The notes under the pieces: model-generated
The model's database searches: none
The model's input: the letters and a program-made list of their open reading frames with translations, nothing else
Told to the model about the DNA's origin: nothing
Shown: in pieces, positions 3,756 to 22,914 of the stretch
Layout: each line of letters starts with the position of its first letter
Position numbering within the stretch: the stretch's first letter is position 1
Translations under genes and position numbers: made by a program
Source of the DNA: Candidatus Parvarchaeota archaeon
GTDB taxonomy: Archaea > Nanobdellota > Nanobdellia > JAFCGN01 > DAOVEB01
Direction of reading: 5' to 3'
NCBI GenBank assembly: GCA_030669205.1
Contig: DAOVEB010000002.1
Span: 1 to 24,000 of the forward strand
DNA length: 24,000 nt

Positions 3756-4046
3756 CTACTTCTTCTTCGGACTTTCCTTTTCCAACGTAATAGTCATTGT
3801 TGAGACGTTCAGCTTGTCTCCTCTTTCCCCTTGGAGTTCCTCTGTTCCAGTTGTTATGTTGTCAATTTTCAAGTCACTCATGAACTTGTTCCTGACTATC
3901 TCAGCCACGTCAACGGCTCTCGAAATAGCCCTTCCCCTCGCCTTTATATATACCTTCTTGGCTCCGTTGTGGAACTGCGTTATCACAGCGAGTACATAGT
4001 TCATTGGTGGTTTGCTGCCAACAAATACGGTGTTATCATCTGCCAT
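3756..4046 (-). CDS. albA: Alba DNA/RNA-binding chromatin protein.
   Basis: [21 protein letters not shown]...[24 protein letters not shown] is a near-canonical Alba signature. A GAGGTGA Shine-Dalgarno site lies 6 nt upstream. Confidence 0.92.
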
Positions 4047-4100: not shown

Positions 4101-4286
4101 CTATCCATTTTCAACTGTTATGGCCTCCTCTGGGCACTGGACCTCGCAGGCCTTGCATCCGATGCACTCTCCCGGCTTCTTCACAACAACTTCCTTGTTG
4201 TCCTTGCCGAAGACATCCATCGGGCAGATGTTTATGCAGGTGCCGCAGTTCGTGCACTTCTTCTTGTCTATAACTGGTCTTGGCAT
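4101..4286 (-). CDS. Small 2x[4Fe-4S] ferredoxin (61 aa).
   Basis: Two CxxCxxCxxxCP motifs (CTNCGTCINICP and CIGCKACEVQCP). The start is taken at the internal ATG (MPRPVIDKKK). The longer track ORF overlaps the upstream gene, and a TATA box sits 24 nt before this ATG. Confidence 0.85.
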   Translation of the reverse strand: MPRPVIDKKKCTNCGTCINICPMDVFGKDNKEVVVKKPGECIGCKACEVQCPEEAITVENG

Positions 4287-4320: not shown

Positions 4321-7300
4321 CTATTGTATGAAGTGTGGGCTTGTACATCTCTCGTCACAACACCCCGGGCATGGCCACTCTGTGCAGCACAGGCTCTCAC
4401 AGTAGCCGGTCAGTGTGTTGAGGTAGTAGTCTGCTGCGGGCTCACATATGCAAGTAGTCGGACAGTCTGCATATTCCAGGTACATGTGGGTCTGAAGCAC
4501 GTTGTCGAACACGCTGTCCCCTTCATCCGGGTCGTCTATATAGGAGATGCAGCCGATGTGCTGGGGTCTCCTGCAGAACCCGTGGTTTTCGAGGCCCGAC
4601 CCGATATAACACTCAAAGTCTGTTGAAGCTCCTGTCACGGCGTCTGTGCATGTGTAGGTTGGTGCTCCTGCATCAGCTTCGTCGCTGTATATTTTCACAC
4701 CGGTTGCAAAGCCCTTCATCCAGACGTCGACAACCTTGAACTTGAGCTTGTGGAACCCTTTTGGAAGGTAGCCAAGGTCCATCTTCACAGTGCGTCCGGT
4801 TGCCTCATCACTGACCTTTGCACAGTTCTCAGCAAAGTGCTCGCAGTAACAACCACTCTCGCTGCAGTAGTCCACCTTATCCTGCGTTACCAGAACGTCA
4901 TCAAGATAGAGGTCTGAGAGAAAGTCGTTGGCCTGGAGCTCGAGTGTGAAGTCATCGCCAGTTGGAACATAAATCAGATAGAGATGGTCCCATGGCTGTA
5001 TCTGTTGGTCTGTGCCCAGGTTTTCAACCCAGTCGGTCTCGTCTCCGATGGCCGCGGCTGTATCAGAAATCGGGTCAGCGTCGAGCTCGCTCGGGCTCTC
5101 CTTCAGGACCTCCAGTACATGTAGTTCCGAGCCGAGCATGCACTTTGTTGTTATCGTAAGACTCTCACCTGACAGTTCGTCAGCTATGCCCTGTAGGTGG
5201 AACTCGCCCGCGTGCGAACCGAGACCTTCGGAAACTGAAAAGGTGAGTTCAACATCGTTGTACCAGAACACTGGCGAGAGCACTGCAAAGGTTGTGCCGT
5301 CCATAGCAGGGTCTCCAAAACCTGCCTGTGCTATCTGTGCTTTGTCCCAGTAGTGGACTGCAGACTGGTCGCATCCCATAAAGTCAAAGTGTCTGAACTC
5401 CCCATAGCCGAAATCGCACCTGCTGTTAGTTCCCCTGTCCCAGAATATCTCGTAGTAGTACGGGACGCCTTCCTCAAAAGGCGCGCTCCAGAGGAACTCG
5501 GCGTCCATCTTTGGCCCTGTCTCGCAACCCACTCTCCAGTCGCCAGAGGCTGATTTGTTCCACACCTCGTCCACCATCCATGGTTCATCACAGGAGGGGA
5601 GGGCCTGGGGCGTAAAGGTGGCATAACCTTTCACAGCAACCTTCTCGAATGGATAGAGCTCCAGATAGCTCATGGACTGGTTGGGTATGGAGATGAAAAG
5701 GTCGTCGCACTGGTCAGACCATCCATCGCTGTCCTTGTCATCTGTGTACACGAGCAAGTTGGTCGAGTCGCATCCCCCTGCGAAGGGGTTGCATCCAGCA
5801 GCTGGTACGGCGCACGCGTTGCTCGGGCACGTGCAGCTACTCGCGAGGTCGCAGTCGTTCGGAATGTTATCAAACTCAAAGTAGACGCAGTATTCGTCTC
5901 CAAGCTGGCATCCCTCGCGCCAGGTCGTCCCACCTGTGCCCCAGCAGCCATCATGGTCGTCGCATGTTGTCGGGTCGCATCCGGTATCCGCGTCGCACCC
6001 TGCTCCGCATTCGCCATCAACACATCTTGTCTTATTGAACCGCTCATAGGTGTCTCCTGTGTCGTAACATCCACAGTCCACTCCCACGTTGCACTGGAAG
6101 TCCTTATAGACCCTGTAAACATCTGTCAAACCGTTGTTTCCAGAGTCGTTGCAGTAGTGATTGTCAGGCGACGGTGAATCATCACACTCACCGTCTTCAC
6201 CAGCATTCTGGTCCTCTATGCTTGGGACTGTGCAGCCGCTACCACACTTATCTACAACACAAGCATAGTCTGTACAGGCACCACGCTCCATACACACCCC
6301 TGTACCATACGCAGCGTAGTACTGATTTGGAGTGTATATATTTGTGCCTGTGTTGATTGTCCAAGTAGTCCAGGGCCCGCCTGTGGTGCAGTTGGTGCAC
6401 CAGTCGCAGCCGTCAAAGCCAGCATCCGTCTTCTTGGTTGATAAAATCGAACAGTTGGCTGACGTATCAGCCGCGCTGCAAGGGCAGTCAGGGTCGTTCA
6501 AATCGGTGTCGCCGTCGCAGTCGTTGTCGATTCCGTCATCGCAGGTTGCCTCCACTGCCTCATAGTCAGGGTCACCAGAATATGTGAGTTTAATCTCGCT
6601 ATCACAGATGTCACAGGAACCATAGTAACCGTCACCATCATCATCTGACTCCAACCACTCCCTATCGCAGGCAGGTGGCGTGCAAGCAGGGTTGCATTCG
6701 CTCGCGGTGCAACCATTGTCACAGGTCGTGTCTGTGCCCGTGTCGCAGCGCAGCCTCTCTCCACCATTGTATGCCTCGCACTGGCAGTTCTCCCCTGCTG
6801 TGCATGTGCGTGCGGTTGTTCCGCAGTTTGTCCAGCCCTGGTCATAGTCGCCGCAGCAACTGGCTTCGCAGTAGTGGTCTCCAGCAGCCTCTATACATCC
6901 TTTACTGCAACTGTCAGCTGTATAGTCCTTGAAGCGGTTATTTGCATTGTCGCAGACATCGGTGCAGGTTTGGGTGCCGCATGAGGTAAGTGTCCCAGTT
7001 GGACATGGGTTGCTTTCGCATGTGCAAGAATCGGTACAATCGTTGACCACATTGTTCCTGTAGTATATATTGTAACTGCCGCTGCAATAGTCATGGCAAA
7101 CGGTGTCTGAACAGTGGCTGTTGAGCGAGCACTCTGCCCCGCAAGAACCTACCACACAATGACAGTTTGATGTCCAACCAGTATCCGTACAGGAAGGAGT
7201 ACAACGTTTGTGTCCACTGCAGGCTACGGCAGGTTTATCTGTGTCACAGGTCGAGAAATGACATAGTTCTCCAGACGGGCAGGAAGGAATTCCTGTGCAA

Positions 7301-7569
7301 CAGTACTGTCCGTTGTTGCAGATAGCAGGGCCGACCAGAGGACAGCCCCAATTTACGCAGAGGGATGTGCCAGAACAACTTAACTCACAAGTGTCACAGG
7401 AGGATGCAGCGGATGGACAATAATTACAGCTGCCACTTCCTCCACCTCCACCACCTCCGCCGCCCGTATTTGGGCCGGTCTCAGCCCCCATCCCTGTCTC
7501 GAACAAGAGAGGAAACAGTAATATGAAAGTAAGTAGGGCTGTTGCAACCAACACTATGTATCTTCTCAT
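4321..7569 (-). CDS. Secreted giant cysteine-rich protein (1082 aa): signal peptide, Gly9 linker, about 600 aa of dense Cys arrays including one MopE-type motif, then a Cys-poor beta-rich region and a Cys-rich C-terminus.
   Basis: N-terminus is [30 protein letters not shown] followed by [12 protein letters not shown] (7438-7464). By hand count there are 23 Cys in the first roughly 118 residues after the linker. Contains [22 protein letters not shown] (6478-6543). ATGA overlap with the upstream gene at 7566-7569. Confidence 0.85.
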
Positions 7570-8459
7570 CCGTACATCAACTCACATTGAGATACAAATT
7601 CCCCATTACGAAAGATTGTCTGGTTGAAGATAAAAAACGTGTCTGTGATGCACTGATATATCTCCAAGGTCATGTCACCGAGTCCTCCACTCCGGTTTAC
7701 GGTTTCCACAGTATAATAGCATCTGACACCATCAAACTCCGCCTCGCCGAGCACTTCCCTTGAAAAACTTTGGTCCCAGTCAACTGAGTAAGTTCCGTTG
7801 CTCACGTGCAACACACCCTCGTAGTCCCATTTCTTGCCAACGTTAAATGGCGTATCATAAGAGAGTAACGGTGGGTCATACATATAGTTGTATTGGTAGT
7901 CTTCAAAGGAATAGACATAAAGGTCACCGTCAACAACGGAGATGTTGAAGTTCTCATAGTTTGTATGTCCTGTTCCTGAGTTTTGGAAGACATAGTGGCC
8001 ATCAACGCGCTCCATATTCACGCTTTCGGTCTTGTTCAAACCCTTGCTGTCCATACACATGTACCACCATGTATGGGTGACGTCCTTCCACATATCGGCC
8101 TGTATGACCTCGTACAGGGGTATACTCCAAGTGTCGTTTGGCACCGAGCCAAACTCGACTTCCAGACCGTCTTTGAATCCATCCCCATCTGTGTCATTTG
8201 AAAGAGGGTCCGTGCCGTAGGTTATCTCTATCCCATCAACTATTCCATCGTTGTCCGTGTCCTGTGCAAGTGGGTCTGTTCCCAGAGAGAGTTCATCCAA
8301 ATCTGTGAGCCCGTCTCCGTCTGTGTCGGATAACAACATGGTTGTTCCGAGGATTATCTCCTGGTAGTTCGGGATTCCGTCACCATCCAAATCCAGCGCA
8401 GAGAAAACGGCTACCGCTACAAAAATTACCAGTACAGCGAAAAGTGCGACCTTTTTCAT
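7566..8459 (-). CDS. Secreted protein with thrombospondin type-3-like Ca-binding repeats (DxDxDGxxDxxE) and a C-terminal Cys-poor beta domain.
   Basis: Signal [28 protein letters not shown], then repeated GTDPLxxDTDxDG units (8160-8393). ATG 8459 is preferred because GGTGGA lies 7 nt upstream. The alternative ATG at 8474 directly abuts the upstream stop. Confidence 0.85.
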
Positions 8460-8474
8460 GTCATAGTCCACCAT

Positions 8475-11400
8475 CTATCCACCACCTGTTGTGAGCGTTG
8501 GCTCGAACTGGACATCAACCGGCGGGCAGTCCGCAGGGCAGGTGTAGCAGCGCTCGTTGTCTTGGCATATCCAGTCGCCGCAGGTTGTTGCAGCCAGCGA
8601 GCTCTGCCTCTCCTCCACGTATATCGGCACAGGCTGCCTTATGTAGGGGTTGACAATGATGTCAAATTGGACCTCCCAGGACATGGGCATCATGTACGGG
8701 TTGAAGTACCTTGTGTTCAGATGTTTGTAACTTCCACTGTCCACCATGCAGTTGATGACGTAGCCCTGCCTATCAAGGTTGAGCATGATGTCCTTCTCAT
8801 CCTTGTCCATGACGCAGGAGAAGTCGTTGTTGCTTATTCCACATGTGAAAGGTTCGACAAGCCGCGCCTCGCCACCCATTGAGTTCCTCAACGTTATATC
8901 CGGTGAGTCGATGTCAGCCTCCTCCTCAACGGTCGAGAATCTCAAGAGGTGAGAGCCGGTTCTCTGGATGCCAAGTGAGATTTCAAGTTCTCCGCGCTCC
9001 ATTCCAGTTCCGCAGGTGGTTCCAAAGACGTTCTCATAACCCTCCGAATAACCTTCGCAGTTGGAAGTGGTCCCTGAGTGGAGCCATGTCGATGCGTAGT
9101 ACTGCATCGAGCCGTTGTTGTTTATACCTGCAGATTCACACCTGTACCTATCTGGTGTGCAGAACGATATGGTTTCATAGTCCAGAATGTAGTCGTCGCT
9201 GGGTAACATGTCCAGGGAGTCAGGTAACTGGCTGTATATCTCCCTGTGGGATGTCCAGAGGTCAGAGAGGTACGCGTCTGAGACGACGGTGGGCCTGATG
9301 TCCAGGCTATAGCTGAACTTGGATGAGACATTGTAGAAGACACCGAACAAATTGGCCCAGACCGCTCCGTCGCCTGAAACCTGCCCGCTGTCGCCGTCAG
9401 TGCTGTAGCTTCCAGCAGACAAACCCGAGCTGTAGACTGTCAGGGGTGTTGCTGGATACGCAGACTGGAAGATAGTGTGTTCAACTGGTGGCTGGTTTGA
9501 GGGGTACGTATCCAAGAGGTGGAAGTTCTCGAACAGGGCAGGAATGTCCTTGTAGACGCATATCTCCCTCTCGACTGTCTGGTACCTTGAACCAGGCACT
9601 GATGGACACTCGCTTTGATCCAACAGATAGACTGAGCAGTCCACAAAGTACGGGGCAGACGAGTTATACCTGATGCTCATGCACTTCTTCAACGGCCCGT
9701 CCACCGTGAACTCCACCTCCTGGTTCTCAGACTCTGTGTCGTCCCACATGATGCCCTTTCCAACCCAGCCCGTGCCATTTGGGGAGGTGTCAGGCACCAC
9801 TGTCAGGTTGCTTATGCACGGCCCCCTATCCCAGCAGCTGAGGGAGTATGTCGCATTGACCAGAGTGTTCTCAATCACATATCTGCTGTTGTCCCCCAGC
9901 ATCGAACCCCATGACGTCTCATAGGAGATTTCAGGGAAGCCTGTGCCGTAGTAGACGTCCACAGACGTAGTTGAGGTGTCGGGTACTATCACTATCTTGC
10001 ACTGGGAGTCGCCTGATGAGAGAACCTGGTGCGGGATGGCTTCCAAGCCGTTGTAAACCACTATGCTCGCGCAGTCCGGTGCCAACACTGTTATCTCCCG
10101 CGGGATTCTCACGGATGAATGGACGTTGCAGGTGTCCCTTCCGACAAATGTTCCAGTTGAGACCGTATCAACAATAATGATTGGGTCGTTGGTTATGTAT
10201 GTTTTATCGGTTTCATTATCATAATAGACGTCCAAAACCGTGCCAAGTATCAGTGGATTCAGATTCCTATCTGTATTGACGTCTGGGTCCTCCGCATAAA
10301 ACTCAAGAAGGAACTGTTTGAAGTTGGGCGCGTCTGCGGTCTCTCCAAAGTTGTTCTCAAAGCTACCTCTCGCACCGAGGGTTACTTCACCACCTATAAC
10401 AGAATAAACTGTGTCATATTCGTTCAGGATTCCACAGCCAGGAGAATTTGCGCATTCATACTCTATAACCTTAAGATAACCATCGAACAGATTTCCCTCG
10501 TCCCTTATCTCAAGTATTGGTGAGACCGAAAGACTAGTTGTCTCGCAGTCTGCGGTGCAGTTTATCTTCCACAACACGTCAATGTCCATTGCAGACGCGA
10601 AGTTGTCGCTGTCGTCGAAAACAAAGACGCTCGCGCTGTTCAGGTCTTCAAGTTCGTCTAGGGTGAAGGTCACGATGCCATCACCATTGGTCTCATCATC
10701 TTTTGTGTGCGACTCAGTCAGCACGCACTCGCAACCCTGGAGGATATGACCAGAACCACATGCTGGGGCCTCTGTAATCAAACAGTTACACGTGCCTGTT
10801 ACGAACTGGCCGCTGGGACATACGGGCTCGGAACTGTCTGAGCACACGCCGCCTGTGCAGGTCGCAGGAGGCTCGCAACGCGCGCTGGACGTTGTCCCAC
10901 ACTCGCACGTTCCGGTGTTGAGAGTGTATCCAGAGTCGCAGGTTGGTGGTGTTCCGGGTGCGGTGGAAGTGTAATGGAGCTTCACTGTGGCTCCGGAAAC
11001 CGGGACAGTGCCGCCTATCTTCCTTACGACCGCTCTTGTGACGTCGTAATCCTTGCCGATATTTATGTGAGTTATACCGTCTGCGTCCGTTATGTTTGAC
11101 GTCACGTTCACAATCCCTTGGCACGCGCATCCAGAGAGCTGGTAGCCAAAGGAGCAGTTGGGGGTCACAGGAAAACCATCACTTAGACACTGCATACCAC
11201 TGCTGTTCACACATCTCCCAATCTCATCTTCTACATAACAGACACCAGCGAATCCATCGGTATCACATTCACCGCAGGTCGCGTCTTCCGGTTCGGTCAA
11301 GCTGAACAGCATCAAGGTATAGTCGCTGAGTCTCTGGCCAGCAGGGCCCAAGAGTACGGCTTCGTACGGGTCTTCAGAGGCAGCGACCAGACCCATGTCC

Positions 11401-14400
11401 AAGGTACCGTCAACTTCAAACTGGTACAACGTTCCGTCAAAGTTCATCGTCACGTTGAACAGTGGCGGCGAATAGGCCTGCCTCTCGAGAAGTTTGAGTG
11501 TGAGCGGCTCCTCTGTCGTGTCCATCTCAAATATGTAGTCGCTTGAAAGGGTTGTAGACTCACACACTGGTTCAGAGTTGACATCTGGCTGGGAGGTCAT
11601 GAAACTCAAGACATCGGCTCCGTGCGCAGAGATGACTGCTGAGAAGGAATCGTTGAACGTTGAGGATATGGCCGTCTCCCCGCGGACCAGGTTGAGGTTC
11701 GCGTCCAATGTTATTCCATACGCCCTTGGCAGGAAATAAAATCCTGTCCAGGAGTTTATCTTGTGGAGCGAAGGGTAGAAGTTCTGCACAGCGTCCGTTG
11801 GCTGGGACTGGCCCGTGCTGGTCCACACCACGTCAAATGAATCAGAGTCAAGCCTGGACGCAAAGCAATAGAGACAATCCGTACACGTGAGCGTCTCCAC
11901 CTGCTCGCATACTAGCATTGAGCCGTCGCAGCCAAGAGCTGTGTATCCATCATCACATCCCTTGGAGCCAGACGGTATTATATCACACTGGACTGGTGAG
12001 GTGCCGCAGACACCGTCAAAGTCTTCGCAGTCTATCCTGTACGAAGCATTTGGTGAGAGGGTGCCTGTGAAGTCTATCTCCGAGTCGCTGGCTATGCTAC
12101 TGACGTATGGCACACAGTCGCACCCACTTTTGTAGTAACCTGCGGCACAGGAGATGGTGTAGGTCCTCTCGCACTCGCAGCTTGACGGGTTGAACGTGTA
12201 GCTGCTTGGGCACTGGCCGTCGCCTGATGGGGGGACCGCACTGAACGGAGCTATTGCAAAGGGTGTATAGAAGAAACCACCGCTTGGCACGCAGTTGCCA
12301 TAGCCGTCGCAGGTCTCGTCAGAGCCGCAGAGTGAGTAGGAAGTGTAGCAGCTGTCGCAGGTGCAGTCGCCGCTGCATCGGTCGCAGAGCGAGTACTGCT
12401 CAATCTCAGTAACAACACGCCAGGTGTGAACTTCAGTGAACTCCATGTCATATACCAAGACATTGTCAAAGTTGCCGTTGAAGTCGAAGCGCGTGAGGTA
12501 GTCGTATGGTTTGGCTGGAGCTGGGGGTTGTGTGAGTGAGGTTCCGATGTCATAGAAGTAGAGTTCGATTGTCCTGTCCCATTCGCTCGCCGGCATTGAG
12601 AGGGTGAAGGTTACGTTCTCTCCAGGCGTCAATATACCATCCCAGACCGGTTCTGTGTCAGATTCGAAAACCTTCTCCATGTTTGCTGTCCTAGCAACGG
12701 CATTGGTTTTCCCAGACCAGAACCCAAGGAGTTTTCCACCACCAAACGGAGCCAGTTGGGTAGTGCCATCCAACCACTCTATTGTACCACCAGTATTAGT
12801 TACACAAGAGATGACTCCACGGTCAACTATGCTACAAATGGCATCATTAGATACGCTCGTCAGGTCGGTAAACTTGCTGGCACCAACATCCATATCAATG
12901 TCCAGTCCTCCATGGGTCACCATAACAAATGGGTCGTCTATATCTTCAGTTCCCGTGTTCTCAACAACCACCTCAATCATCACCCTGTCACTGTCATTGT
13001 TGAAGCCGACGTTTCCGCCCCTGTCCGAACAATCCGAGGATGTGGTATACCTCGTGTTTGAGTTGCAGTCATGGTACTGCTTGTAATTCCCGGCAGAGTT
13101 GAACACTCCGACTTCGGTTATGCGGGCCTCGATGTAGCCGGTGGTTGACCAGCCGTATGGGTCACAATCGGCACCAGTAAGTAACCCTCTATTCAAATTG
13201 CTACAGTAACCATTTCTACAGTCCGCATAATGTTGCCCATCATAGTCCAAAGAAGCGTCGCAGGTGCAGATTTCCTCGTCGGCGTAGTAGACCTTGTCCG
13301 TCATGAACGGGACATTATATGGATTGCCGCATGTCTCGCCGTATATACAGATGTTTTTCATGTATTCTTCCAACTCTGCGATACAAATATCCGATGCATG
13401 ATATGGTTGATAATAGACTTGGTGGAGGTAGCTAGGGCTATAATACTCATCGGCCCTAGGACAGGAATGTTCCATTATATCCAAAAACTCATCATAAGAA
13501 GCCATTGGTGAGATTGTAGAACCATCATTGGCTTCACAGTACGGCTCACAATTTGGGCACATGCAGTACATTCCAGCAGCAATGGAATCCCACCTGCATC
13601 TTGTGTAGTCATAAGGCGGAATGTCACAAATGCTATCCAAGCAACCCGGTTGCACCAATGGAACAGGGAAATATATGTAATCATCATCGCTGCAGGAGTA
13701 TTCAAGACTGTAGTATGCACCTGGCAAGTCCTGATATGTAAACCTGCTAGGAAGTCTTGAAATATCGTGTGACCCGTCTCCTGTTGTCATGGAAGGTCCA
13801 CTTGGATTCATAGTAAGCTCAATCGGGTCTATATCACCAATATCAGCAGATACCGGCATCTGAGTACCTATCTTCATCTCCTGTGCGTTCTGGTCATAAT
13901 AGTCCATAATCCAGCCACTATGTGAAAAATAAAATAGTGTACCATCATGTTTCACAGCAACTGCCCCACAATCAAGGTTGTTGGTGCAAAAATCATACTG
14001 TTCATCTGTGCCGTCCTCATCTAAATCCAATTCAGCGTATCCCAAACAAACATCACTGGAAGTCGGCTTTGTGCCACTTGGTCCAGTCATGTCGCAGACA
14101 ACATTCTGGAAAGTAGCTAAATCAGGTCCAGATGCAATTGAATTTTTCTTCACAGGGAACTGGTAATCAAAGCTGTAATCCGCGCTGCTCCTGCCGCAGG
14201 ACCACGCAGTGTACGCAGGACTGTACTCACAACTGTAGCAAGTGCCACCGTCTGCACAGCCGGAATACAGGAAATCTACAGAATGATCGCCATCCACTAC
14301 CAAGAGGTTGTTAGGACTATATGCAGTAGAACCACAGTAATATGGTGTCACTGGTGTCTCTGGTGTAGTTTCAGTTGCTCTGCAATGCTCATCACACTGA

Positions 14401-14822
14401 GTAGTTGGGGACCCTCCCTGAAATACACATTGCCCATCCATACATCCAGCACCGCTGCAGAGCTCCTGATCCAAACACCAGCAGTTTACATAGATGCCTG
14501 TATAGGTTTGAGAAGCAGGGCATCCTGGTATACCCAAACCAGCACAACTTGGAACAAAGCTGTATTCGCATCCTTGATTAAGGTCTGTCCACTGGTCGGC
14601 TGTGGTGTATGTCACCTGGTCTATACATCCGCTAATTGGCAGACCGGTGCCTTCTCTGAAGCAGTAACCTGTACCTGATGGGCACAGATTTGTACACGCA
14701 TCACACTGAACATAGCTAAGGACCGAGACATATTCTCCGCAGTCAACCTGGGAGTATACCCCCTTAATTAACAGTAGACCTAAGGACAAGAGACATACTA
14801 TGAACAAAACTCTCTTGTTCAT
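8475..14822 (-). CDS. Secreted giant cysteine-rich protein (2115 aa), mosaic of Cys-knot-like arrays and Cys-poor beta-rich segments.
   Basis: One uninterrupted 6.3-kb frame. Sec signal MNKRVLFIVCLLSLGLLLIKGVYS/QVDC. GGAGGAG Shine-Dalgarno site 8 nt upstream. Recurrent C-x-[SAD]-G-x(4,5)-G-(T)-C-x-C modules. C-terminal CGDWICQDNERCYTCPADCPP module. Confidence 0.9.
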   Translation of the reverse strand: MNKRVLFIVCLLSLGLLLIKGVYSQVDCGEYVSVLSYVQCDACTNLCPSGTGYCFREGTGLPISGCIDQVTYTTADQWTDLNQGCEYSFVPSCAGLGIPGCPASQTYTGIYVNCWCLDQELCSGAGCMDGQCVFQGGSPTTQCDEHCRATETTPETPVTPYYCGSTAYSPNNLLVVDGDHSVDFLYSGCADGGTCYSCEYSPAYTAWSCGRSSADYSFDYQFPVKKNSIASGPDLATFQNVVCDMTGPSGTKPTSSDVCLGYAELDLDEDGTDEQYDFCTNNLDCGAVAVKHDGTLFYFSHSGWIMDYYDQNAQEMKIGTQMPVSADIGDIDPIELTMNPSGPSMTTGDGSHDISRLPSRFTYQDLPGAYYSLEYSCSDDDYIYFPVPLVQPGCLDSICDIPPYDYTRCRWDSIAAGMYCMCPNCEPYCEANDGSTISPMASYDEFLDIMEHSCPRADEYYSPSYLHQVYYQPYHASDICIAELEEYMKNICIYGETCGNPYNVPFMTDKVYYADEEICTCDASLDYDGQHYADCRNGYCSNLNRGLLTGADCDPYGWSTTGYIEARITEVGVFNSAGNYKQYHDCNSNTRYTTSSDCSDRGGNVGFNNDSDRVMIEVVVENTGTEDIDDPFVMVTHGGLDIDMDVGASKFTDLTSVSNDAICSIVDRGVISCVTNTGGTIEWLDGTTQLAPFGGGKLLGFWSGKTNAVARTANMEKVFESDTEPVWDGILTPGENVTFTLSMPASEWDRTIELYFYDIGTSLTQPPAPAKPYDYLTRFDFNGNFDNVLVYDMEFTEVHTWRVVTEIEQYSLCDRCSGDCTCDSCYTSYSLCGSDETCDGYGNCVPSGGFFYTPFAIAPFSAVPPSGDGQCPSSYTFNPSSCECERTYTISCAAGYYKSGCDCVPYVSSIASDSEIDFTGTLSPNASYRIDCEDFDGVCGTSPVQCDIIPSGSKGCDDGYTALGCDGSMLVCEQVETLTCTDCLYCFASRLDSDSFDVVWTSTGQSQPTDAVQNFYPSLHKINSWTGFYFLPRAYGITLDANLNLVRGETAISSTFNDSFSAVISAHGADVLSFMTSQPDVNSEPVCESTTLSSDYIFEMDTTEEPLTLKLLERQAYSPPLFNVTMNFDGTLYQFEVDGTLDMGLVAASEDPYEAVLLGPAGQRLSDYTLMLFSLTEPEDATCGECDTDGFAGVCYVEDEIGRCVNSSGMQCLSDGFPVTPNCSFGYQLSGCACQGIVNVTSNITDADGITHINIGKDYDVTRAVVRKIGGTVPVSGATVKLHYTSTAPGTPPTCDSGYTLNTGTCECGTTSSARCEPPATCTGGVCSDSSEPVCPSGQFVTGTCNCLITEAPACGSGHILQGCECVLTESHTKDDETNGDGIVTFTLDELEDLNSASVFVFDDSDNFASAMDIDVLWKINCTADCETTSLSVSPILEIRDEGNLFDGYLKVIEYECANSPGCGILNEYDTVYSVIGGEVTLGARGSFENNFGETADAPNFKQFLLEFYAEDPDVNTDRNLNPLILGTVLDVYYDNETDKTYITNDPIIIVDTVSTGTFVGRDTCNVHSSVRIPREITVLAPDCASIVVYNGLEAIPHQVLSSGDSQCKIVIVPDTSTTSVDVYYGTGFPEISYETSWGSMLGDNSRYVIENTLVNATYSLSCWDRGPCISNLTVVPDTSPNGTGWVGKGIMWDDTESENQEVEFTVDGPLKKCMSIRYNSSAPYFVDCSVYLLDQSECPSVPGSRYQTVEREICVYKDIPALFENFHLLDTYPSNQPPVEHTIFQSAYPATPLTVYSSGLSAGSYSTDGDSGQVSGDGAVWANLFGVFYNVSSKFSYSLDIRPTVVSDAYLSDLWTSHREIYSQLPDSLDMLPSDDYILDYETISFCTPDRYRCESAGINNNGSMQYYASTWLHSGTTSNCEGYSEGYENVFGTTCGTGMERGELEISLGIQRTGSHLLRFSTVEEEADIDSPDITLRNSMGGEARLVEPFTCGISNNDFSCVMDKDEKDIMLNLDRQGYVINCMVDSGSYKHLNTRYFNPYMMPMSWEVQFDIIVNPYIRQPVPIYVEERQSSLAATTCGDWICQDNERCYTCPADCPPVDVQFEPTLTTGGG

Positions 14823-14828
14823 TCCATC

Positions 14829-14839
14829 ATCTCCTCCCC
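14829..14839 (-). promoter_or_regulatory. Shine-Dalgarno site (GGGGAGGAGAT) for the 2115-aa gene.
   Basis: Read directly in the 61-nt gap between the 937-aa and 2115-aa genes. Confidence 0.55.
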
Positions 14840-14883
14840 GCTTCCACGGACAGAATTACAGACCGTTAAAAGAACTTTTCTGT

Positions 14884-17697
14884 TCATGGTATCTCCTCCA
14901 TCTTGCCGTATGGTCCGTAGGCAGGCGCGCATTCCTCCTTAACGATGATATCCCTGGTTTTGAGGTTTTCAGATTCGTCATAGTAGTAGCACTCGTAGGT
15001 CTGCAGAGTGTCTGGCTGGTACTTCACACATATGCCAGGTGTGATGAGCCTGCAGCAGGGCGAAATTATCCTGCCGTTGATGTCCCTGATAGTCTCGTCA
15101 TGGGTTGGCAGGCAGCAGAAGTTGTTCGCGTTGCACACCATCTGTATGTCGTTGACGCCTATCCTCACAACATTGCAGTCGCATGCCTCGTCATCGGTTC
15201 CAGACAGGCATATCGAACCTATTTCATTCAGGTTTTTACATATCTCGCAACTGTACGGAGACGTGACCTCAAAGGTGCTGTTCTCTGCAAAGAGGAGCTG
15301 TATTGGGAGGCCAGCAGCCTGCGCCCTACCTGTCGGGTTAAAGGAGTAGTCGGCCGAATATGTGAGCTGTCGCGACTCGCCTGTGCAGTGGTCGGTCACG
15401 TTGACGTACAGGCTCTTCAGTTTTATCCTCCACGGATAGCCTGTGAGCGCCTCCAGTTTCGCTGGTGAGACCTCCTCGAACTCGCGGAAGAATTCTGCCC
15501 TCAGCGCAGCGTCGAACATGTTCTCGCACTCCTCATTCGGACAGAACGCGCAGTTGAAGACCTCGACGTCGGTCAGGTTGTACTTTGCGCACTCCATGTC
15601 GTCGTATGTGTAGTCCGTGCCTTCCAAGCCCATGTTCCAGATGAGCCTCGTGAGCCAGTCCTGCTTCGGGAGTATGAGGTCTTCGGTTGCGAAGCACTCG
15701 CAATCAGCCTCTCTCACGTCAACTTTGCTCTGGTCAACGGTCCTCAGATTGCAAGCCAGGTCCTTCTTGCAGTAGTAACCTGCTGGATACGTTGTGCTGT
15801 CAATGGTTCTCTCCTCAAAGTGCTCCATGCTGTAACCACTTGGGCAAGTGGCAGTTGGATGGCAGGTGCAGCCATCTGAAACCCCTGTGCAGGAGTTCAG
15901 CTCGCACTGGCAAGTGCCTGAAACTAGGGTCCCAGACGCGCAGTTTGCGTCAGTGGGTGTATAACATGTTATGACATTGCCATCGCACCTCGGAACCTTT
16001 CCACCTGTGCAGAAATCATAGTACAACACATCAATACCATCCAAACATGTCGGAAAACTTGAAATACAGATGTAGTTATAAGTTCCAGGACAGCCACCGA
16101 AGACGTAGGAGTAACTTTCTCTGTAACATTTGCCAGAGTCACATGTTATTCCTAGGCAGGTCGCATCTGTATAGCTGCAACTGTCATAACCTTCAGTCCC
16201 ACAGTAGTACTCCCCATCGCTGTACACGATGTTTTCCGGCTCGCAGTCACTGGGGTCACGCACGCACTTCCCTGAATCACACCGGTCCCCGGAAGAGCAG
16301 GCAGAACCGAGCGTCTCTCCTTCTTTGACGAATACCTGGAGCGTCTTCATGGTGACCGCGTCAAGTATGTAGTCAATCCTGTGTTCAAGCTCGTACTCCT
16401 GCCACCCAATATAGTCTGCGTACTTCCCGGCATACACGCCACTGACATAGTCCTTTGAATAGGAATACAGGTCTGGGAAACCTCCCTTGTAGCCGACCAT
16501 CGAGAGAAGTGAGAGGTAATTGGTGAGGTCGAACCTGCCTGCTGTGATGTTCATGCAGAGCCTCTCCCCCTCGCCCGGTATGAAGGTATACCCTATTTCG
16601 CCTTTGTCCACGTTGATTTCTCCAATTCTGGTGTCAACAAAGTCGAACTTGTCCCTTCTGATGTCATAGTATATCCAGTCCTTGCCGAGCTCCATGACCT
16701 TCCTCACAGCAGGCTCGAGGTAGACGGACCTTCCGGTCAAACTGCCGTACGGGTCGATGAAGACGTGGTACCTTGCTGTGCCAATCTGAATCTCGTCACC
16801 CGAACCCACAGAAGAATCCCTTATGGAAGGTGCCACATCATAGCAGTACTCGTTCGTCTGACCTATGTCAAAGGTATAAGTGGTGTCACCCTCTCCCTTG
16901 TATGAGTAGACCCCAAGATACTTGCCGCCGGCAGCCATGCATCCGGTGAAGTTGTAGCCTGAAACGTCAAACTCGTCAGTTAATGTGAGCTTTGTCCTGT
17001 TCATCGACCTGAGCTCGAGCTGGATGTTTTCTATTGTAACAGTTTCGCCGAGCGCGGATGAGACCATCTCGAGGTTCGGGTCATCGGTCGGGTCGAACTC
17101 AACTGTGCCGTTCAGATAGTAGTAGACGTCATAGGTATGCTTCAGGTACGGCCTCGAGAGCTCGGGGTCGGATATGTATTTGCTGCCGCCTGTCTCCTTG
17201 AAAACGAGATATGTCTCTGACTGCAGAGAGCCGGAAGGTGCGAGGGCGGATGCCCTTGAGAACGGGAAGTAATCGGCGAGGAGCGAGTCAACGGTCTCAA
17301 TCAAATCATTCTCATCAGGTATGCAGAGCTCACCACGGTTCTTCCAGTAACGGACAACGGTTTCGTCGTCAACTGTGGCGAAGAAGTCCGGAACTGGCAG
17401 GAACGGGAGAAAGTCGGCAACATCGATGTAGCGATAGCTTTCGGGAATCAAACACGTGTCCGGGTCCCCACCACCCACAAGACCGGTGAAAAGTATCGCC
17501 CTGTCAAGGGCATAGCGCCTCTCCTGGTCAAAGAGCAGCCTTGCTGATTCGCCGGATGAGATTGTTGTCACGAGCCTGCCCCTTATGTTGGTTGAGCCGC
17601 CGATTGTGGCTGTATAGGAGAATGTGTTCATCAGGGCCCAGAAGGTAGCAACCGCCATCCCGAGTATTATTATGAGGTTTGTCTGTGCACGCTTCAC
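14884..17697 (-). CDS. Giant protein (937 aa) with a pilin-like (class III signal-like) N-terminus and Cys-rich central and C-terminal regions.
   Basis: GTG start at 17697 immediately after the TAG of the upstream gene. The N-terminus (V/M)KRAQTNLIIILGMAVATFWAL resembles the 129-aa pilin N-terminus KAQGLPLNTIVLGALAVLV. A dense Cys block is encoded at 15694-16299. Confidence 0.8.
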   Translation of the reverse strand: MKRAQTNLIIILGMAVATFWALMNTFSYTATIGGSTNIRGRLVTTISSGESARLLFDQERRYALDRAILFTGLVGGGDPDTCLIPESYRYIDVADFLPFLPVPDFFATVDDETVVRYWKNRGELCIPDENDLIETVDSLLADYFPFSRASALAPSGSLQSETYLVFKETGGSKYISDPELSRPYLKHTYDVYYYLNGTVEFDPTDDPNLEMVSSALGETVTIENIQLELRSMNRTKLTLTDEFDVSGYNFTGCMAAGGKYLGVYSYKGEGDTTYTFDIGQTNEYCYDVAPSIRDSSVGSGDEIQIGTARYHVFIDPYGSLTGRSVYLEPAVRKVMELGKDWIYYDIRRDKFDFVDTRIGEINVDKGEIGYTFIPGEGERLCMNITAGRFDLTNYLSLLSMVGYKGGFPDLYSYSKDYVSGVYAGKYADYIGWQEYELEHRIDYILDAVTMKTLQVFVKEGETLGSACSSGDRCDSGKCVRDPSDCEPENIVYSDGEYYCGTEGYDSCSYTDATCLGITCDSGKCYRESYSYVFGGCPGTYNYICISSFPTCLDGIDVLYYDFCTGGKVPRCDGNVITCYTPTDANCASGTLVSGTCQCELNSCTGVSDGCTCHPTATCPSGYSMEHFEERTIDSTTYPAGYYCKKDLACNLRTVDQSKVDVREADCECFATEDLILPKQDWLTRLIWNMGLEGTDYTYDDMECAKYNLTDVEVFNCAFCPNEECENMFDAALRAEFFREFEEVSPAKLEALTGYPWRIKLKSLYVNVTDHCTGESRQLTYSADYSFNPTGRAQAAGLPIQLLFAENSTFEVTSPYSCEICKNLNEIGSICLSGTDDEACDCNVVRIGVNDIQMVCNANNFCCLPTHDETIRDINGRIISPCCRLITPGICVKYQPDTLQTYECYYYDESENLKTRDIIVKEECAPAYGPYGKMEEIP

Positions 17698-18117
17698 CTA
17701 ATCACCCACACTCATATATTTGAACGGTCTCCCTCCTCTGAAAAGCTCATAGGGGTTGAACACCGAGATGGAGCAGTCGCCGGTTATGCTGCCCTCGTAT
17801 ATCTTCTTGTCAGAGTAGTACTGGAGCAAAAACAGCCTGTTTGGGTTCACGTACTCTATGGGAAGTCCCCCATAGTACTCCGAAAGGTCTGCGTAGGAGC
17901 CGATTTCCTGGAATCCCAGCTCATACCTTATGTAGTCGTTCCTGTACAGCGACGTGAGCATTGCGCTGCACTCCTCCATCTTCTCCGTGTTCACAACCTG
18001 GAGGAGTATGGTCTGCTTCGAAGACTCGGCAAAGAGACTATACGTTATTATAAATGCGGAGCTGGAAACTGCCAGAAGTATGATTTCGATGAACGTTATT
18101 GCCCCTTTTCTGTTCAT
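17698..18117 (-). CDS. Pilin-like protein (139 aa) with a class III signal peptide.
   Basis: MNRKG/AITFIEIILLAVSSSAFIITYSLF has basic residues, Gly, then a hydrophobic helix with Glu at +6, which is type IV pilin-like. TAATG overlap with the upstream gene. Confidence 0.75.
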   Translation of the reverse strand: MNRKGAITFIEIILLAVSSSAFIITYSLFAESSKQTILLQVVNTEKMEECSAMLTSLYRNDYIRYELGFQEIGSYADLSEYYGGLPIEYVNPNRLFLLQYYSDKKIYEGSITGDCSISVFNPYELFRGGRPFKYMSVGD

Positions 18118-18941
18118 TAGAATCCACCTCCCGTGAAAGATACAGAGGTGCTACCGCCGACCCCGTACTTTATTGTGGTTGTGAGTATGCCCACGCTGTC
18201 CCTGACGAAAGCCCCATCTTCATCAACGTATCTGATGACAACTGGCACGCTGGACGTATAGACCGAAGACTTGTCCTCAAGGTAGTCTATGAAATAACTG
18301 TCAAGTGTGTAGAGACCTTCGGGTTCCGGTGCCTTGAAGATGAGAGAGACATCCGCGCCCTGGCCAACAATTGCGAGAGCTATATTCAAAGCTATATCAG
18401 TTATTACGACGGCTGTTGAAATAGCACCTGACCAGAACTTTGTAATCTCCTTCGTTGTCTCGACAAAGAGATGAGCCTCTGTCATGTTCAGCTGAGGACT
18501 TGTGCTCAGACGGTGGTTTTTGAGTCTCCGGTTGTCCTCAAGGTCCCTCAACTCAAAGTCGATGACGTAGAGGCTGTAGGTGGTGTCGCCAACCGCGCTC
18601 CACGGAACCTCGGTTATATCGTTGAAGAAGTAACTCTGGATGCAGCCGAAGTATCTGTCCATGTTGAACTTCCTCTCATCCACCACTCCTGGGTAGACCC
18701 GCCTGATTGTACGGATTTTGTCGTTCGTCTCGTCGTAACTCACAGCGCCTGTCTCATAGGCGAAACAGTCGGCAGATGAATAAGCGCGAGTAGCGAGAGA
18801 ATTGGCGAAGCTCCTGGCATCGGCCCAAGTCGAGATGATGGTGATGTCGCTGAACTTGTAGCTTATAGACAGCACCATGAGTGAAAAGAGCATCATGGCT
18901 AGGGAAGCGTTCACGTATGCCATGATTTCTATCTCTGCCAT
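18117..18941 (-). CDS. Membrane-anchored or secreted protein (274 aa) with an N-terminal hydrophobic helix (non-canonical pilin-like); ends in TGGGF.
   Basis: N-terminus MAEIEIMAYVNASLAMMLFSLMVLSISYKF. The ATG lies 3 nt after the upstream TAG, with a GTGAGGT Shine-Dalgarno-like site upstream. No family recognised. Confidence 0.7.
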   Translation of the reverse strand: MAEIEIMAYVNASLAMMLFSLMVLSISYKFSDITIISTWADARSFANSLATRAYSSADCFAYETGAVSYDETNDKIRTIRRVYPGVVDERKFNMDRYFGCIQSYFFNDITEVPWSAVGDTTYSLYVIDFELRDLEDNRRLKNHRLSTSPQLNMTEAHLFVETTKEITKFWSGAISTAVVITDIALNIALAIVGQGADVSLIFKAPEPEGLYTLDSYFIDYLEDKSSVYTSSVPVVIRYVDEDGAFVRDSVGILTTTIKYGVGGSTSVSFTGGGF

Positions 18942-18944
18942 CCT

Positions 18945-21410
18945 CTAAACCTCACAATAACATACCCCTGGTAAAGGCAAGGTGTTAAAAATAGTATTGC
19001 ACCTAGCCCCTGAGAGTGGTTGCAGATTGCTCATATCTCCCGTGAACTCCAGTTCGAACGGGAAACACCTTCCATTACCATACCCTTCGTTGTTACATAT
19101 CTCAGTGCAACCACTGCATTCGATAAATTCGACAAGACACAAAGGAGGTGGGCAGTCAGTTGGACACTGCCAGCTGTCCTCTCCCTCATCACACACCCCA
19201 TCCCCACACTTATAACTCTCCGTGAGTATGTCGTTCCAGTTCATGAGCACAACTGGCTCGCAGCCATTGTTCATGATCTTGACTTCTGCACCGACCCTAT
19301 CGGCTTTGAGGGAGCATTTATAGTACATCGACTGTAAAAATCCTGGTTTCAGTTCGAGGGACCTCGACTCCAGGGGCATTTCAGGTATTATGGTGTTCAA
19401 CGTGTTGCTCAGCACATCCAGGGGTGATTCCATCCCGGCAAGGCTGAAGATGAAGTCAAGTCCGTCACCGAAGAAAGGTATGTCCACTGTCACAGATGGA
19501 AGGAGGTGTGATGTATGCTTGAACCAGTAGGTGTTGCCGCTCTCCCTGAGCTCCCATAAACTCGGATTAATGTCATAGCCGGTGGCTATAAGCATCTGCT
19601 CCAGCAAATTGGGTTCGACTATCTGACCGTCCTTCAGGGTGTAATCTATGGTGAGATTTTCAAATTGGACATCGACACTGCAACCGATGTCGGCAAAGTC
19701 ATAGCAGAAGAGTTTGAAGTTGCCTTGCTCCTCACCCTCCTCGTTCCTTGCGAAGTGGTTCTCGCACAGCATGCCGTTTTCATAGGAAAAGAACCTCGCA
19801 GGTGTGACGTAAACGTCAAAGGTCTGGTCGCTGCCCTTGCACGCCTTCTTCACATAATCCGCTATCTCCCCAACTCCAATTGGATAATAGCTGTCTCCAT
19901 CGCCGCACAGGGTGTCAAAGGTCTCCTTGTTCTTTGAGAGGACAATTTTCCCATCCGACATCTCCAGCGAAGGCGTCTCGTAATTGCCTCCAAAATAGGA
20001 GAGCTGGTTGCGCAGGAAGCACATGTCCTCCCCATTGACACCATAGCTCTTTACAGCCTTTATCTCGTCCTCGTCAGTGGTGAAGTCGATGGTCACAGCA
20101 CCATATTTGCCGGCGTAGAAGTCGTAGAAGCTGTCCGCGCTGTCCAGGTCAACTTGGAACAATATTTGGTTGCCTGTAAGAAAGTCAACCAGTTCCCACA
20201 GCGGGTCATCTGTCCTGCACGACCTGTAAGCTGCGTAGCCGGTTGCAGTCGTCTGTGCCCAGAGAGGCAGGTCCCTGTAGTACCTCAACTTCGAGGCCCA
20301 GTCAGGCATGGACCTAAAGGGTGTGGCTGCCATCCACTTCACTGGTTTGAACCTGCGAACCCCGTCAGAACCAACATAGGTGTACTCTATATAGCTGTTG
20401 TACTTCCTCAGGTCCTCGGCCTTCACGTGGTTCAGCCAGTCGTCCATATCGAGGTCACCGGTGTGGGTCAGGAAGTAATGGTTCATCCCGTTCTCCATAA
20501 CATCCAGTCTGTCTTCGGCTCTTTTTAGATGGCTATATGATGTAGCATATACCCCCCTGCCGGCACCGGGAACACCGTCTATCATGTCCTTAGTGTGTCT
20601 TGCCATAGCTCCGTTAGGGTCTGCTATTATGTCATCCATTATCGATTTGGCATAGTCATCCGCATCATCGTAGTGATTCTTTAGGAACTTCGAATTATCG
20701 AAGGTAGTATCCCCTCTTCTTATTGCGTCCGCGATAGCACCCTGTGCCTCGTGTCTTGGCCTGCCCACTGCATTCATCGAGACAATATCATCGACCTCCA
20801 TACCTCTCACCATGCCGAGCCTGCTCTTCACATTGGTAACCCAGTCGCTCTTCCTGGCCTTTATATCATCTATCCAGTCCCTCAGCTTACTAAGTCTGCT
20901 CTTCGCCTTTTTTTCTATCAACTCCTCTGTCGCCTCTTGCATCCCTTCGGTAACCATATCTCTTGCCTTATCACCTGCCGTATCCTTAACCTCATTTAAC
21001 AGCGCTTTCTTCGCCTTGCCCGCCACCGCCTTCAAGGTTCCGAAGCTCATGTAGATGCACGCGGTCCTCGGGGTGTAGAGCATGCGCTCGTCCTTTGTAA
21101 AGGTCACAGCAGCGCTGACGTCGTCTATCTCCAGCCCCCCCTCGCACACGAACTTTCCGAGCCTCTGGCTCCAAGAGCATGCATGGGGCCCGCGGTACTC
21201 GACATACGCGTCCTCCGGCAGCGAGTAGAGCAGTGATGTCAAGGCTTCAAGCTCGTTTGTGAAGTGTATTATAGGCATGTTCCTCGCTGTGTAGAAGACG
21301 CCTGTCGTGTTCGCATAGTTTATGGACAGGACGAGAAACGCTCCTGAGAGGAGAAGCGTTCCAATCGTTATGGTGATATATGCCTTCCTGGACAGAACCG
21401 GTCTGGACAT
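18945..21410 (-). CDS. Giant mosaic protein (821 aa): pilin-like N-terminus, 279-aa Cys-free highly charged segment, beta-rich middle, C-terminal CGDGVCDEGEDSWQCPTDCPPP module plus a small Cys-knot-like tail.
   Basis: N-terminus MSRPVLSRKA/YITITIGTLLLSGAFLVL, compared with the mini-pilin MRA/VSLTIGTVVALIIALLV. TATA box 23 nt upstream. The CGDG module is encoded at 19143-19208. Confidence 0.8.
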   Translation of the reverse strand: MSRPVLSRKAYITITIGTLLLSGAFLVLSINYANTTGVFYTARNMPIIHFTNELEALTSLLYSLPEDAYVEYRGPHACSWSQRLGKFVCEGGLEIDDVSAAVTFTKDERMLYTPRTACIYMSFGTLKAVAGKAKKALLNEVKDTAGDKARDMVTEGMQEATEELIEKKAKSRLSKLRDWIDDIKARKSDWVTNVKSRLGMVRGMEVDDIVSMNAVGRPRHEAQGAIADAIRRGDTTFDNSKFLKNHYDDADDYAKSIMDDIIADPNGAMARHTKDMIDGVPGAGRGVYATSYSHLKRAEDRLDVMENGMNHYFLTHTGDLDMDDWLNHVKAEDLRKYNSYIEYTYVGSDGVRRFKPVKWMAATPFRSMPDWASKLRYYRDLPLWAQTTATGYAAYRSCRTDDPLWELVDFLTGNQILFQVDLDSADSFYDFYAGKYGAVTIDFTTDEDEIKAVKSYGVNGEDMCFLRNQLSYFGGNYETPSLEMSDGKIVLSKNKETFDTLCGDGDSYYPIGVGEIADYVKKACKGSDQTFDVYVTPARFFSYENGMLCENHFARNEEGEEQGNFKLFCYDFADIGCSVDVQFENLTIDYTLKDGQIVEPNLLEQMLIATGYDINPSLWELRESGNTYWFKHTSHLLPSVTVDIPFFGDGLDFIFSLAGMESPLDVLSNTLNTIIPEMPLESRSLELKPGFLQSMYYKCSLKADRVGAEVKIMNNGCEPVVLMNWNDILTESYKCGDGVCDEGEDSWQCPTDCPPPLCLVEFIECSGCTEICNNEGYGNGRCFPFELEFTGDMSNLQPLSGARCNTIFNTLPLPGVCYCEV

Positions 21411-21433
21411 CGGTCTAATTTAATATTTACATC

Positions 21434-21441
21434 AATATAAA
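21434..21441 (-). promoter_or_regulatory. TATA box (TTTATATT) 23 nt upstream of the 821-aa gene ATG, in a 60-nt AT-rich spacer.
   Basis: Minus strand reads aaacTTTATATTgatgtaaatattaaattagaccgATG. Confidence 0.45.
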
Positions 21442-21454
21442 GTTTAATACAAAT

Positions 21455-22900: not shown

Positions 22901-22914
22901 CTTCTATCATCAGA

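Follow-up and report, generated by a model that had tools for sequence, protein, structure and literature searches.

A locus beside ftsZ encoding pilin-like and giant cysteine-rich exported proteins in a DPANN archaeon

The first 24,000 nucleotides of contig DAOVEB010000002.1 of Candidatus Parvarchaeota archaeon (GenBank assembly GCA_030669205.1; this whole stretch is called the window below) contain three genes, here named A, B and C, that form the distal end of a locus of about 19.4 kb (4321–23708) otherwise made up of pilin-like genes; all of the window genes and protein features described here are on the minus strand. Gene A (8475–14822) encodes an exported giant mosaic protein of 2115 amino acids (aa) that is a core member of the locus, gene B (7566–8474) a 302-aa protein with an N-terminal hydrophobic anchor, four TSP3 repeats and a C-terminal domain of about 190 aa, and gene C (4321–7569) an exported 1082-aa protein with a cysteine-rich N-terminal half and a conserved, β-rich C-terminal half. 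All three are intact open reading frames (ORFs). We favour, at a probability of about one half, the interpretation that disulfides and calcium stabilise A, B and C, and that the three are exported to the surface as products of a type-IV-filament-like locus in which A would have an adhesin role like that of PilY1.

Gene order and conservation

The A gene and its pilin-like neighbours stay together in relatives. A complete HMMER scan of A residues 916–2115 against 1.84 billion representative proteins found nine relatives, seven of 1576–2551 aa and two cut-off fragments (439 and 1020 aa), of which P0007 is colinear with A; colinear homology is also seen in the orthologues from loci L083 through L089. 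Upstream DNA is readable in seven loci (the window, L083, L084, L085, L086, L087/L088 and L089), and in every one of them the A-family gene comes directly after orthologues of U139 (17698–18117), which encodes a small pilin-like protein with the N-terminus MNRKG-AITFIEIILLAV and the motif G-(A)-[IV]-T-x-x-E, and U937 (14884–17697), which encodes a large one with the N-terminus MKRAQ-TNLIIILGMAV. U937 is always the gene directly upstream of A, and in the orthologous loci the two genes overlap or are separated by no more than 30 nt. The full order U257-U219-U821-U274-U139-U937-A is present in most loci, and phmmer comparisons family by family confirm orthology with E values of 1e-10 to 1e-82 (1e-49 to 1e-70 for U274 and U821). 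An earlier note on this DNA had proposed that the trio belongs to one surface apparatus with the pilin-like genes, and the comparison with relatives bears out the linkage.

Locus L083 repeats the whole window order: pilins and tiny ORFs, module genes for proteins of 265, 213, 744, 267, 142 and 711 aa with one extra 151-aa gene that the window lacks, then homologues of A (1876 aa), B (288 aa) and C (1000 aa), and finally ferredoxin, Alba, FKBP, FtsZ, SecE, Spt5 and L11. The full module followed by A is also found in L085 and L087/L088; in L084, whose contig begins inside its U274 homologue, and in L086 the module is present from U274 or U821 onward and leads to an A gene with Alba directly after it, and L089 has U139-U937-A. 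U139 orthologues are present in all loci. L001, the contig of the C relative, is likewise syntenic, with the C-terminus of an A homologue (48% identity), a B-slot gene for about 296 aa, a gene for a 1169-aa C orthologue and then the same ferredoxin-Alba-FKBP-FtsZ-SecE-Spt5-L11 series. The A homologues in L091 and L092 are 67% and 53% identical to the window protein. Wherever downstream sequence is available, the block lies upstream of (ferredoxin)-Alba-FKBP-FtsZ.

The idea in the earlier note that the trio as a whole accompanies the pilin-like genes holds for A and not for its two partners: C is found together with A in three loci only (the window, L001 and L083), and the B position is variable, while L002 and L003 carry the pilin-like module and no A at all. 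The only homologue of B is the TSP3-containing L083 protein (E 1e-25); the corresponding slot in L001, L091 and L092 holds unrelated N-terminally anchored proteins, of about 300–350 aa in L001 and L091 and readable for the first 144 residues in L092, and is hypervariable. A 28% identity between the window and L091 B-slot proteins came from a forced global alignment, is meaningless and was disregarded. We note that in L002 (7032–7907) and at the equivalent place in L003, both 'Parvarchaeota' Meg22 metagenome-assembled genomes (MAGs), the position of A is taken by a cysteine-rich (8–9%) anchored protein of 275–291 aa; judging from these two loci, the six-gene module may accept different cargo proteins.

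HMMs of the families, run on ORFs from 80 FtsZ loci of GTDB species representatives, matched L002 and L003 (all six U families) and L005 (A) and no others, and the locus is therefore confined to a narrow clade. Other searches found little more. A word-indexed search of 5.8 billion proteins returned A itself only for A, and C plus one relative for C; a 10-sequence A alignment used in the same way again gave only A, its cysteine-rich words having probably saturated the candidate list. Scanning a genome collection with the C alignment brought up no relatives, and a metagenome scan with the A C-terminus gave one short contig only, from the same organism as L005.

Within the trio the genes are packed stop to start, as the earlier note had described: the A/B junction reads ...GGA TAG ATG GTG..., in which the A stop codon abuts the B start codon, and the B/C junction reads ...GG ATGA GA..., in which the B stop overlaps the C start. 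L083 repeats this geometry, with its A homologue ending at 15631, its B homologue starting at 15632 and its B and C homologues sharing 4 nt. The public, NCBI-derived gene calls are shorter, P0001 (A, 1988 aa) starting at residue 128, 127 codons late, and P0003 (C, 944 aa) at residue 139, 138 codons late, and thus lack the signal peptides of A and C. The long forms are the better models because homology among orthologues reaches upstream of the public starts, and two gene calls that miss export signals are thereby corrected. As to the outcomes that the earlier note had thought damaging to its proposal, the genes are not scattered in relatives, they are intact and conserved, and they match no well-characterised or S-layer family.

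The proteins are under selective constraint. Synonymous sites are saturated in all pairs (pS about 0.8), so the proportions pN and pS are given instead of dN/dS; pN is 0.21 for the A C-terminus against L091 and 0.43–0.50 for C and A against L001 and L083, values far below pS and comparable with the 0.30–0.33 of FKBP; FtsZ has 0.08–0.09. A and C are constrained yet fast-evolving, as would be expected of exposed surface proteins.

The three distal proteins

Protein A begins with a Sec-type signal peptide (14751–14822, residues 1–24, MNKRVLFIVCLLSLGLLLIKGVYS/Q, read from the sequence), with the n-h-c pattern MNKR-VLFIVCLLSLGLLLI-KGVYS/Q; here and elsewhere in this work, signal peptides and pilin-like leaders were assigned by inspection. 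The orthologues P0007, P0009, P0010 and P0013 have equivalent N-termini. The N-terminus of C also fits a Sec signal pattern, its orthologues are similar, and small residues stand at positions -3 and -1 in A, C and their orthologues. B has a 20-residue hydrophobic stretch with no evident cleavage site and looks like an N-terminally membrane-anchored protein, so that the classical Sec signal once ascribed to all three proteins stands for A and C, and the N-terminus of B is rather anchor-like.

The most widely shared part of A is a C-terminal module (8523–10037, residues ~1596–2100), which is covered at least partly in nine of nine relatives and has invariant C, G, Y, W and P columns in their alignment. 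It overlaps a predicted tandem β-sandwich region (9456–10148, residues ~1559–1789; AlphaFold2, pLDDT 60–85) and ends in a knot motif (8526–8582, CGDWICQDNERCYTCPADC) that is conserved in A orthologues and whose CGDWIC...CPADC pattern recurs at the C-terminus of U821. The protein itself ends in ...CPADCPPVDVQFEPTLTTGGG, and neither A nor C has a hydrophobic tail. Conserved blocks of A cover residues ~360–810, ~956–1178 and ~1400–2108, and the cysteine arrays at ~810–955 and ~1180–1400 are lineage-specific; across the orthologues cysteine content runs from 2.5% to 6.6%. Neither A nor C matched anything in Pfam, NCBIfam or PADLOC, as whole proteins or as overlapping 300-aa segments, and the earlier note's failure to recognise catalytic motifs agrees with the lack of any catalytic family in Pfam and NCBIfam. 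Sequence-profile searches of the PDB gave no match for the A C-terminal module, and those with A, C, U139 and the pilin families were empty or non-significant. We note two further features of individual A orthologues. P0008, P0009, P0011 and P0013 (loci L090, L084, L086 and L089) have long C-terminal extensions built from repeats of a C-x-x-GW-x-(N/D)-C-(D/N)-x-(D/N)-W-x-(N/D)-GCE module that window A lacks, and in P0010 and P0012 the conserved C-terminal module is interrupted by a Laminin_G_3 domain.

Cysteine is exceptionally abundant in both giants, with 116 residues (5.5%) in A and 103 (9.5%) in C against 0% in FKBP, 0.5% in FtsZ and 0.4% in L11 of the same window. Per-50-residue counts bear out the described alternation of cysteine-dense arrays with cysteine-poor blocks; the local density of about one residue in five that had been given for both proteins is reached in C (10 per 50), and the peak in A is lower (8 per 50, about one in six). 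No DNA tandem repeats, tRNAs or Rfam families were found in the region, and since there is no tandem DNA repeat the cysteine arrays are not recent DNA duplications. A motif scan found no CxxCH haem motifs, and readings of these proteins as haem or Fe-S carriers, or as a defence system, were rejected.

Cysteine-rich exported proteins recur in this lineage, for U937, the U821 C-terminus, the putative pilin U129 and an ORF at the window start are cysteine-rich as well. The last of these (1–531; it starts at 531 and runs off the window) encodes another exported protein, MGAKALAFTLTCLLLFSAAHA..., with CNGLDDDGDGVID in its sequence. This protein shares 48% identity with a 1124-aa L001 protein and probably corresponds to a 1120-aa gene at the same place in L083; these counterparts sit just after L11, in L001 between L11 and L1, and L084 and L087 have none at that position.

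Calcium-binding elements are found in B and C. The four TSP3_bac repeats of B (8151–8396, residues ~27–108, DxDxDGxxDxxE) match Pfam PF18884 in four stretches with E 1.3e-22 and 79.8 bits against a cut-off of 25. The Asp-rich motifs that had been attributed to the giants are present but all lie in C, none of those quoted being in A, and a motif scan found no DxDxDG in A. In C they consist of ESDDDGDGY at residues 308–316 and a second motif at residues 343–356 (6502–6648, by regular expression), whose core Asp, Gly and Cys residues are all kept in the L001 orthologue, and of a TSP3-like loop (5704–5745, residues 609–622) in which D611, D613, G616, W617, D619, C621 and D622 are invariant in three orthologues. 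The C orthologues are 39% (L001) and 33% (L083) identical to the window protein; in the columns aligned with L001, 84% of Cys and 55% of Asp residues are conserved against 39% overall. A weak lead is a hevein-like cysteine spacing (6778–6897, residues 225–264), where the C-family profile aligns with 39 of 43 hevein residues, cysteines matching, at E = 0.35; Pfam Chitin_bind_1 was not reported for C in 300-aa segments. One Asp-rich motif of C resembles by eye the MopE-type metal-binding motif (Cu-binding_MopE, which we take to be its Pfam name); Pfam gave no match to it even at E <= 10 with 300-aa segments.

The pilin-like genes and the downstream neighbours

Upstream of U139 and U937 the module continues with the pilin-like members U274 (18117–18941), U821 (18945–21410) and the paralogues U219 (21471–22130) and U257 (22127–22900). 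Beyond these lie two tiny pilin-like ORFs (together 22915–23210), of 51 aa (22915–23070, MRAVSLTIGTVV...) and 47 aa (23067–23210, MKRGAIGLSLETLVV...), then U129 (23319–23708, MKAQGLPLNTIVLGALAVLVLV...), a putative major pilin of 129 aa with orthologues in L083, L085, L087 and L003, and a third tiny hydrophobic ORF of about 43 aa (23769–23897). Two of the three tiny ORFs have pilin-like leaders and two of the three a similar INS-x-x-P tail, and equivalent ORFs of 50–66 aa stand at the locus head in L083, L085 and L087. A TATA-like box, TTTATATA, lies about 30 nt before the U129 start codon and a long T-rich tract past its stop (both within 23250–23760), and because of these two signals the sequence suggests that U129 is transcribed separately and at a high level, as a unit that precedes the long gene string. 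A scan for sigma-70 promoters and terminators stayed at background level, a sigma-70 model being irrelevant for an archaeon.

Most of the U proteins start with a short basic leader that ends in G or A and is followed by a hydrophobic helix of about 20 residues, as in MKA-QGLPLNTIVLGAL, MKRA-QTNLIIILG, MNRKG-AITFIEIILLAV and MKRG-AIGLSLETLVV. Such a leader and helix are the signature of archaeal class III (prepilin-type) signals, and the K-G/A-Q form resembles substrates of the Methanococcus peptidase EppA. By inspection, leaders of this type are present and kept across orthologues in U129, U139, U937, U821 and the tiny ORFs, with the orthologue motifs KAQG/KKGQG-LPL..., K(G/A/S)Q... and KG-(A)[IV]T..E; in U257, U274 and U219 the leader is less clear in the window, which shows no clean [KR][GA] cleavage motif there. 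U937 also contains a lineage-specific cysteine-rich insert of about 215 aa (residues ~460–675, window 15670–16320) that domain mapping indicates to be absent from the L083, L084 and L085 orthologues. The hairpin-like motif CxxGYxxxGxCxC is common to this insert and to A, and one kind of cysteine module seems to have spread among the proteins of a single operon. Upstream of the pilin genes, L083 (1–849) and L087 (1–776) have a further cysteine-rich protein of 470–500 aa with conserved ...YIDSF..SRKA...P.ECA..TF.DSC..C tails; the window ends before that position, and its last ORF fragment is unlike it.

Downstream of C lies a gene for a 61-aa ferredoxin of the 2x[4Fe-4S] type (4101–4286), between C and Alba, which is kept at this place in L001, L005, L083 and L090 and is present in L087 as a truncated 38-aa form. 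It is followed by the ORF in the Alba position (3756–4046; by synteny only), by FKBP26 and FtsZ and, beyond the ORF in the Spt5 position (1290–1757; synteny and tblastn matches in related loci), by L11, the FKBP26, FtsZ and L11 genes being on the same strand and identified by Pfam. The FtsZ protein is 64–78% identical to those of Woesearchaeota, Nanoarchaeota and 'Parvarchaeota' MAGs, and the organism is therefore, on this sequence comparison, a Woesearchaeota/Nanoarchaeota (DPANN) archaeon.

Interpretation and significance

The favoured interpretation would work as follows. The locus head supplies a putative major pilin with its own promoter-like and terminator-like signals, two tiny peptides and six larger pilin-like proteins, and these six would together make up a priming or tip complex, anchored in the membrane, for a type-IV-filament-like structure. 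A, presumably made from the same tightly packed gene string and exported by Sec, would use its conserved C-terminal module (residues ~1596–2100) to dock there and would display its variable β-sandwich and disulfide-knot domains outward as an adhesin. B, membrane-anchored and with four TSP3 loops, and C, secreted and with TSP3-like loops, would serve as accessory or specificity factors particular to the lineage, the extracellular parts would be stiffened by disulfides and Ca2+, and the likely use would be attachment to a host cell or surface. Filament formation, docking, the tip location and adhesion we infer by analogy, much as the earlier note had inferred adhesin, matrix or contact-dependent functions, since PilY1 acts as an adhesin docked on bacterial minor pilins; A shares with it a Sec signal (by inspection) and a place next to the minor-pilin-like genes (in seven of seven loci).

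Several observations count against this interpretation. No PilY1/PilC domain was found in A with Pfam, in the whole protein or in segments, so that A is not a PilY1 homologue and only the analogy of role is kept, and the confidently modelled region of A is a generic β-sandwich. The structure models themselves are poor, with a pLDDT of 26.6 for C from two sequences, which is unusable, and of 48 overall for the A module from a 10-sequence alignment, of which about 230 residues are usable. In L002 and L003 the pilin-like module is followed by a cysteine-rich protein of 275–291 aa in place of A. The label "pilin-like", which the earlier note had already used for the upstream genes, comes from N-terminal motifs only: Pfam, NCBIfam and PDB profile searches gave no significant pilin family or structure match for the U proteins, the nearest being weak single-member matches in the U139 family to ComGD (E 0.0055), Flp1_like (0.021) and ComGF. 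Finally, neither the window nor the flanking DNA fetched from relatives showed a filament ATPase, a platform protein or a prepilin peptidase, and type IV pilus components have been stated to be missing from DPANN genomes (10.1101/2020.05.14.094862).

The same absences, of pilin family matches, of assembly genes in the fetched DNA, of a clean cleavage motif in three U proteins and of reported DPANN pilus components, favour the main rival explanation, in which the U proteins are not pilins but ordinary membrane proteins with an N-terminal anchor, and the locus encodes a surface complex that involves no filament, for example an envelope scaffold or a fixed structure for contact or feeding, with A, B and C as its extracellular parts. 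We regard this as doubtful, but as a serious competitor. The leaders recur across orthologues (K-A/G-Q, and KG-[A][IV]T..E, which is like bacterial G/FTLIE), a separately promoted small pilin-like gene and tiny pilin-like peptides appear to head the locus, and a recent census reports type-IV-filament systems in some DPANN archaea (bioRxiv 10.64898/2026.04.22.720090), all of which counts against this rival.

It is unlikely that A, with C, is instead an S-layer or main envelope protein with incidental pilin-like neighbours. The 17 N-x-S/T sequons of A and the β-sandwich content of its model would suit such a protein, but A and C have neither an S-layer family match nor a C-terminal anchor (transmembrane helix or PGF-CTERM). 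The place of the A gene also speaks against very high expression from a promoter of its own: it is seventh or later in a packed gene string, shows no obvious promoter and overlaps or abuts U937 in orthologous loci. It is entirely lacking from the close relatives L002 and L003, and its orthologues vary widely in cysteine content and size. A secreted enzyme or toxin acting on host envelope glycans through carbohydrate-binding modules, as which A and/or C could also be read, seems quite improbable. Foldseek searches of the PDB with the A module found only accessory β-sandwich domains of GH38, GH2 and PL26 enzymes, that is, of glycoside hydrolases and a polysaccharide lyase, and the hevein-like cysteine pattern of C and the lectin-like Laminin_G_3 inserts of two A orthologues point the same way. 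These fold matches are poor (TM 0.23, rmsd >10 Å), generic and to non-catalytic sandwiches, so that at the level of models they are not evidence of catalysis; the hevein alignment is weak, and no catalytic domain or motif was found. That the long ORFs are non-functional remnants or mis-called frames, as the shorter public gene calls might suggest, is scarcely credible and is effectively refuted by the conservation data, for the frames are unbroken over 6.3 and 3.2 kb, up to nine other lineages have orthologues whose colinear homology continues beyond the public starts, cysteines are strongly conserved and pN is far below pS.

The closest known systems share some features with the locus and differ from it in others. 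Like the bacterial type IVa minor-pilin operon (FimU-PilVWXE-PilY1), the locus has pilin-like genes followed in one operon by a gene for one very large protein with a signal of the Sec and not the prepilin type, and calcium-binding elements; it differs in that A lacks both the PilY1/PilC domain and, in the confident part of its model, a β-propeller, in that the calcium-binding motifs are in B and C and not in A, in its larger pilin-like proteins (up to 937 aa) and in being archaeal. Archaeal type-IV-filament loci, among which the Methanococcus Epd 11-gene cluster is reportedly named, offer a likeness in their combination of multiple pilin-like genes with large β-rich adhesin-like proteins, but here no ATPase, platform or peptidase gene was present in the fetched DNA and no available family model matched. 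The census lists several such loci with large adhesin-like proteins (system 2, subsystems 4A/B with a PilY-like adhesin and 4G with arCOG05616) and reports the Epd-like system 1 in some DPANN archaea; a family with the extreme cysteine content and ~2000-aa size of A is not described in the text that was read (bioRxiv 10.64898/2026.04.22.720090).

Among individual proteins, the bacterial TSP3-repeat surface proteins CglD and MtsD of Myxococcus resemble B, whose four repeats give partial NCBIfam alignments to them, but B scores 33–37 bits against cut-offs of 400 and 800, shares the repeats alone, and is small and membrane-anchored. The lectin-like and pectin-lyase-like orphan surface proteins of Nanobdella aerobiophila are similar in having a signal or N-terminal helix, β-sandwich or lectin-like folds, no family homology and a proposed part in host attachment; they have no sequence relation to the proteins described here, and the paper on them mentions neither cysteine nor a gene cluster. 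The hevein/CBM18 knottin is like C residues 225–264 in its near full-length alignment and matching cysteine spacing, and unlike them in the E value of that alignment and in the lack of a Pfam match.

The general kind of system is already known, orphan large surface proteins being common in DPANN archaea and adhesin-like genes being present in archaeal filament loci, and literature searches found no description of the A family or of this locus. By the libraries and papers searched, what is new is the A family with its module, its near-obligate pairing with U139 and U937, the address beside FtsZ, the extreme cysteine content and the hypervariable B slot. A bolder version of the favoured interpretation, which we offer only tentatively, is that the locus builds a host-contact organelle specific to a Woesearchaeal DPANN clade, in which a priming complex of the type-IV-filament kind, made of six unusually large pilin-like proteins, would display the ~2000-aa, disulfide-knotted A of a hitherto unannotated family, and the rapidly swapped ~300-aa cassette in the B slot and the cysteine-rich C would set host or ligand specificity.

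A life in attachment to other cells is generally assumed for DPANN archaea, and to our knowledge the machinery for it has not been described in the Woesearchaeota, which are widespread and uncultivated. If the function were only generic adhesion, the locus would be one more case of large orphan symbiont surface proteins, useful and unsurprising. It is nonetheless a concrete candidate attachment apparatus, conserved across relatives and recognisable by its address next to FtsZ, whose protein families, as defined here, are unnamed in current databases, and it supplies targets for metaproteomics, labelling in cryo-electron tomography and multimer modelling.

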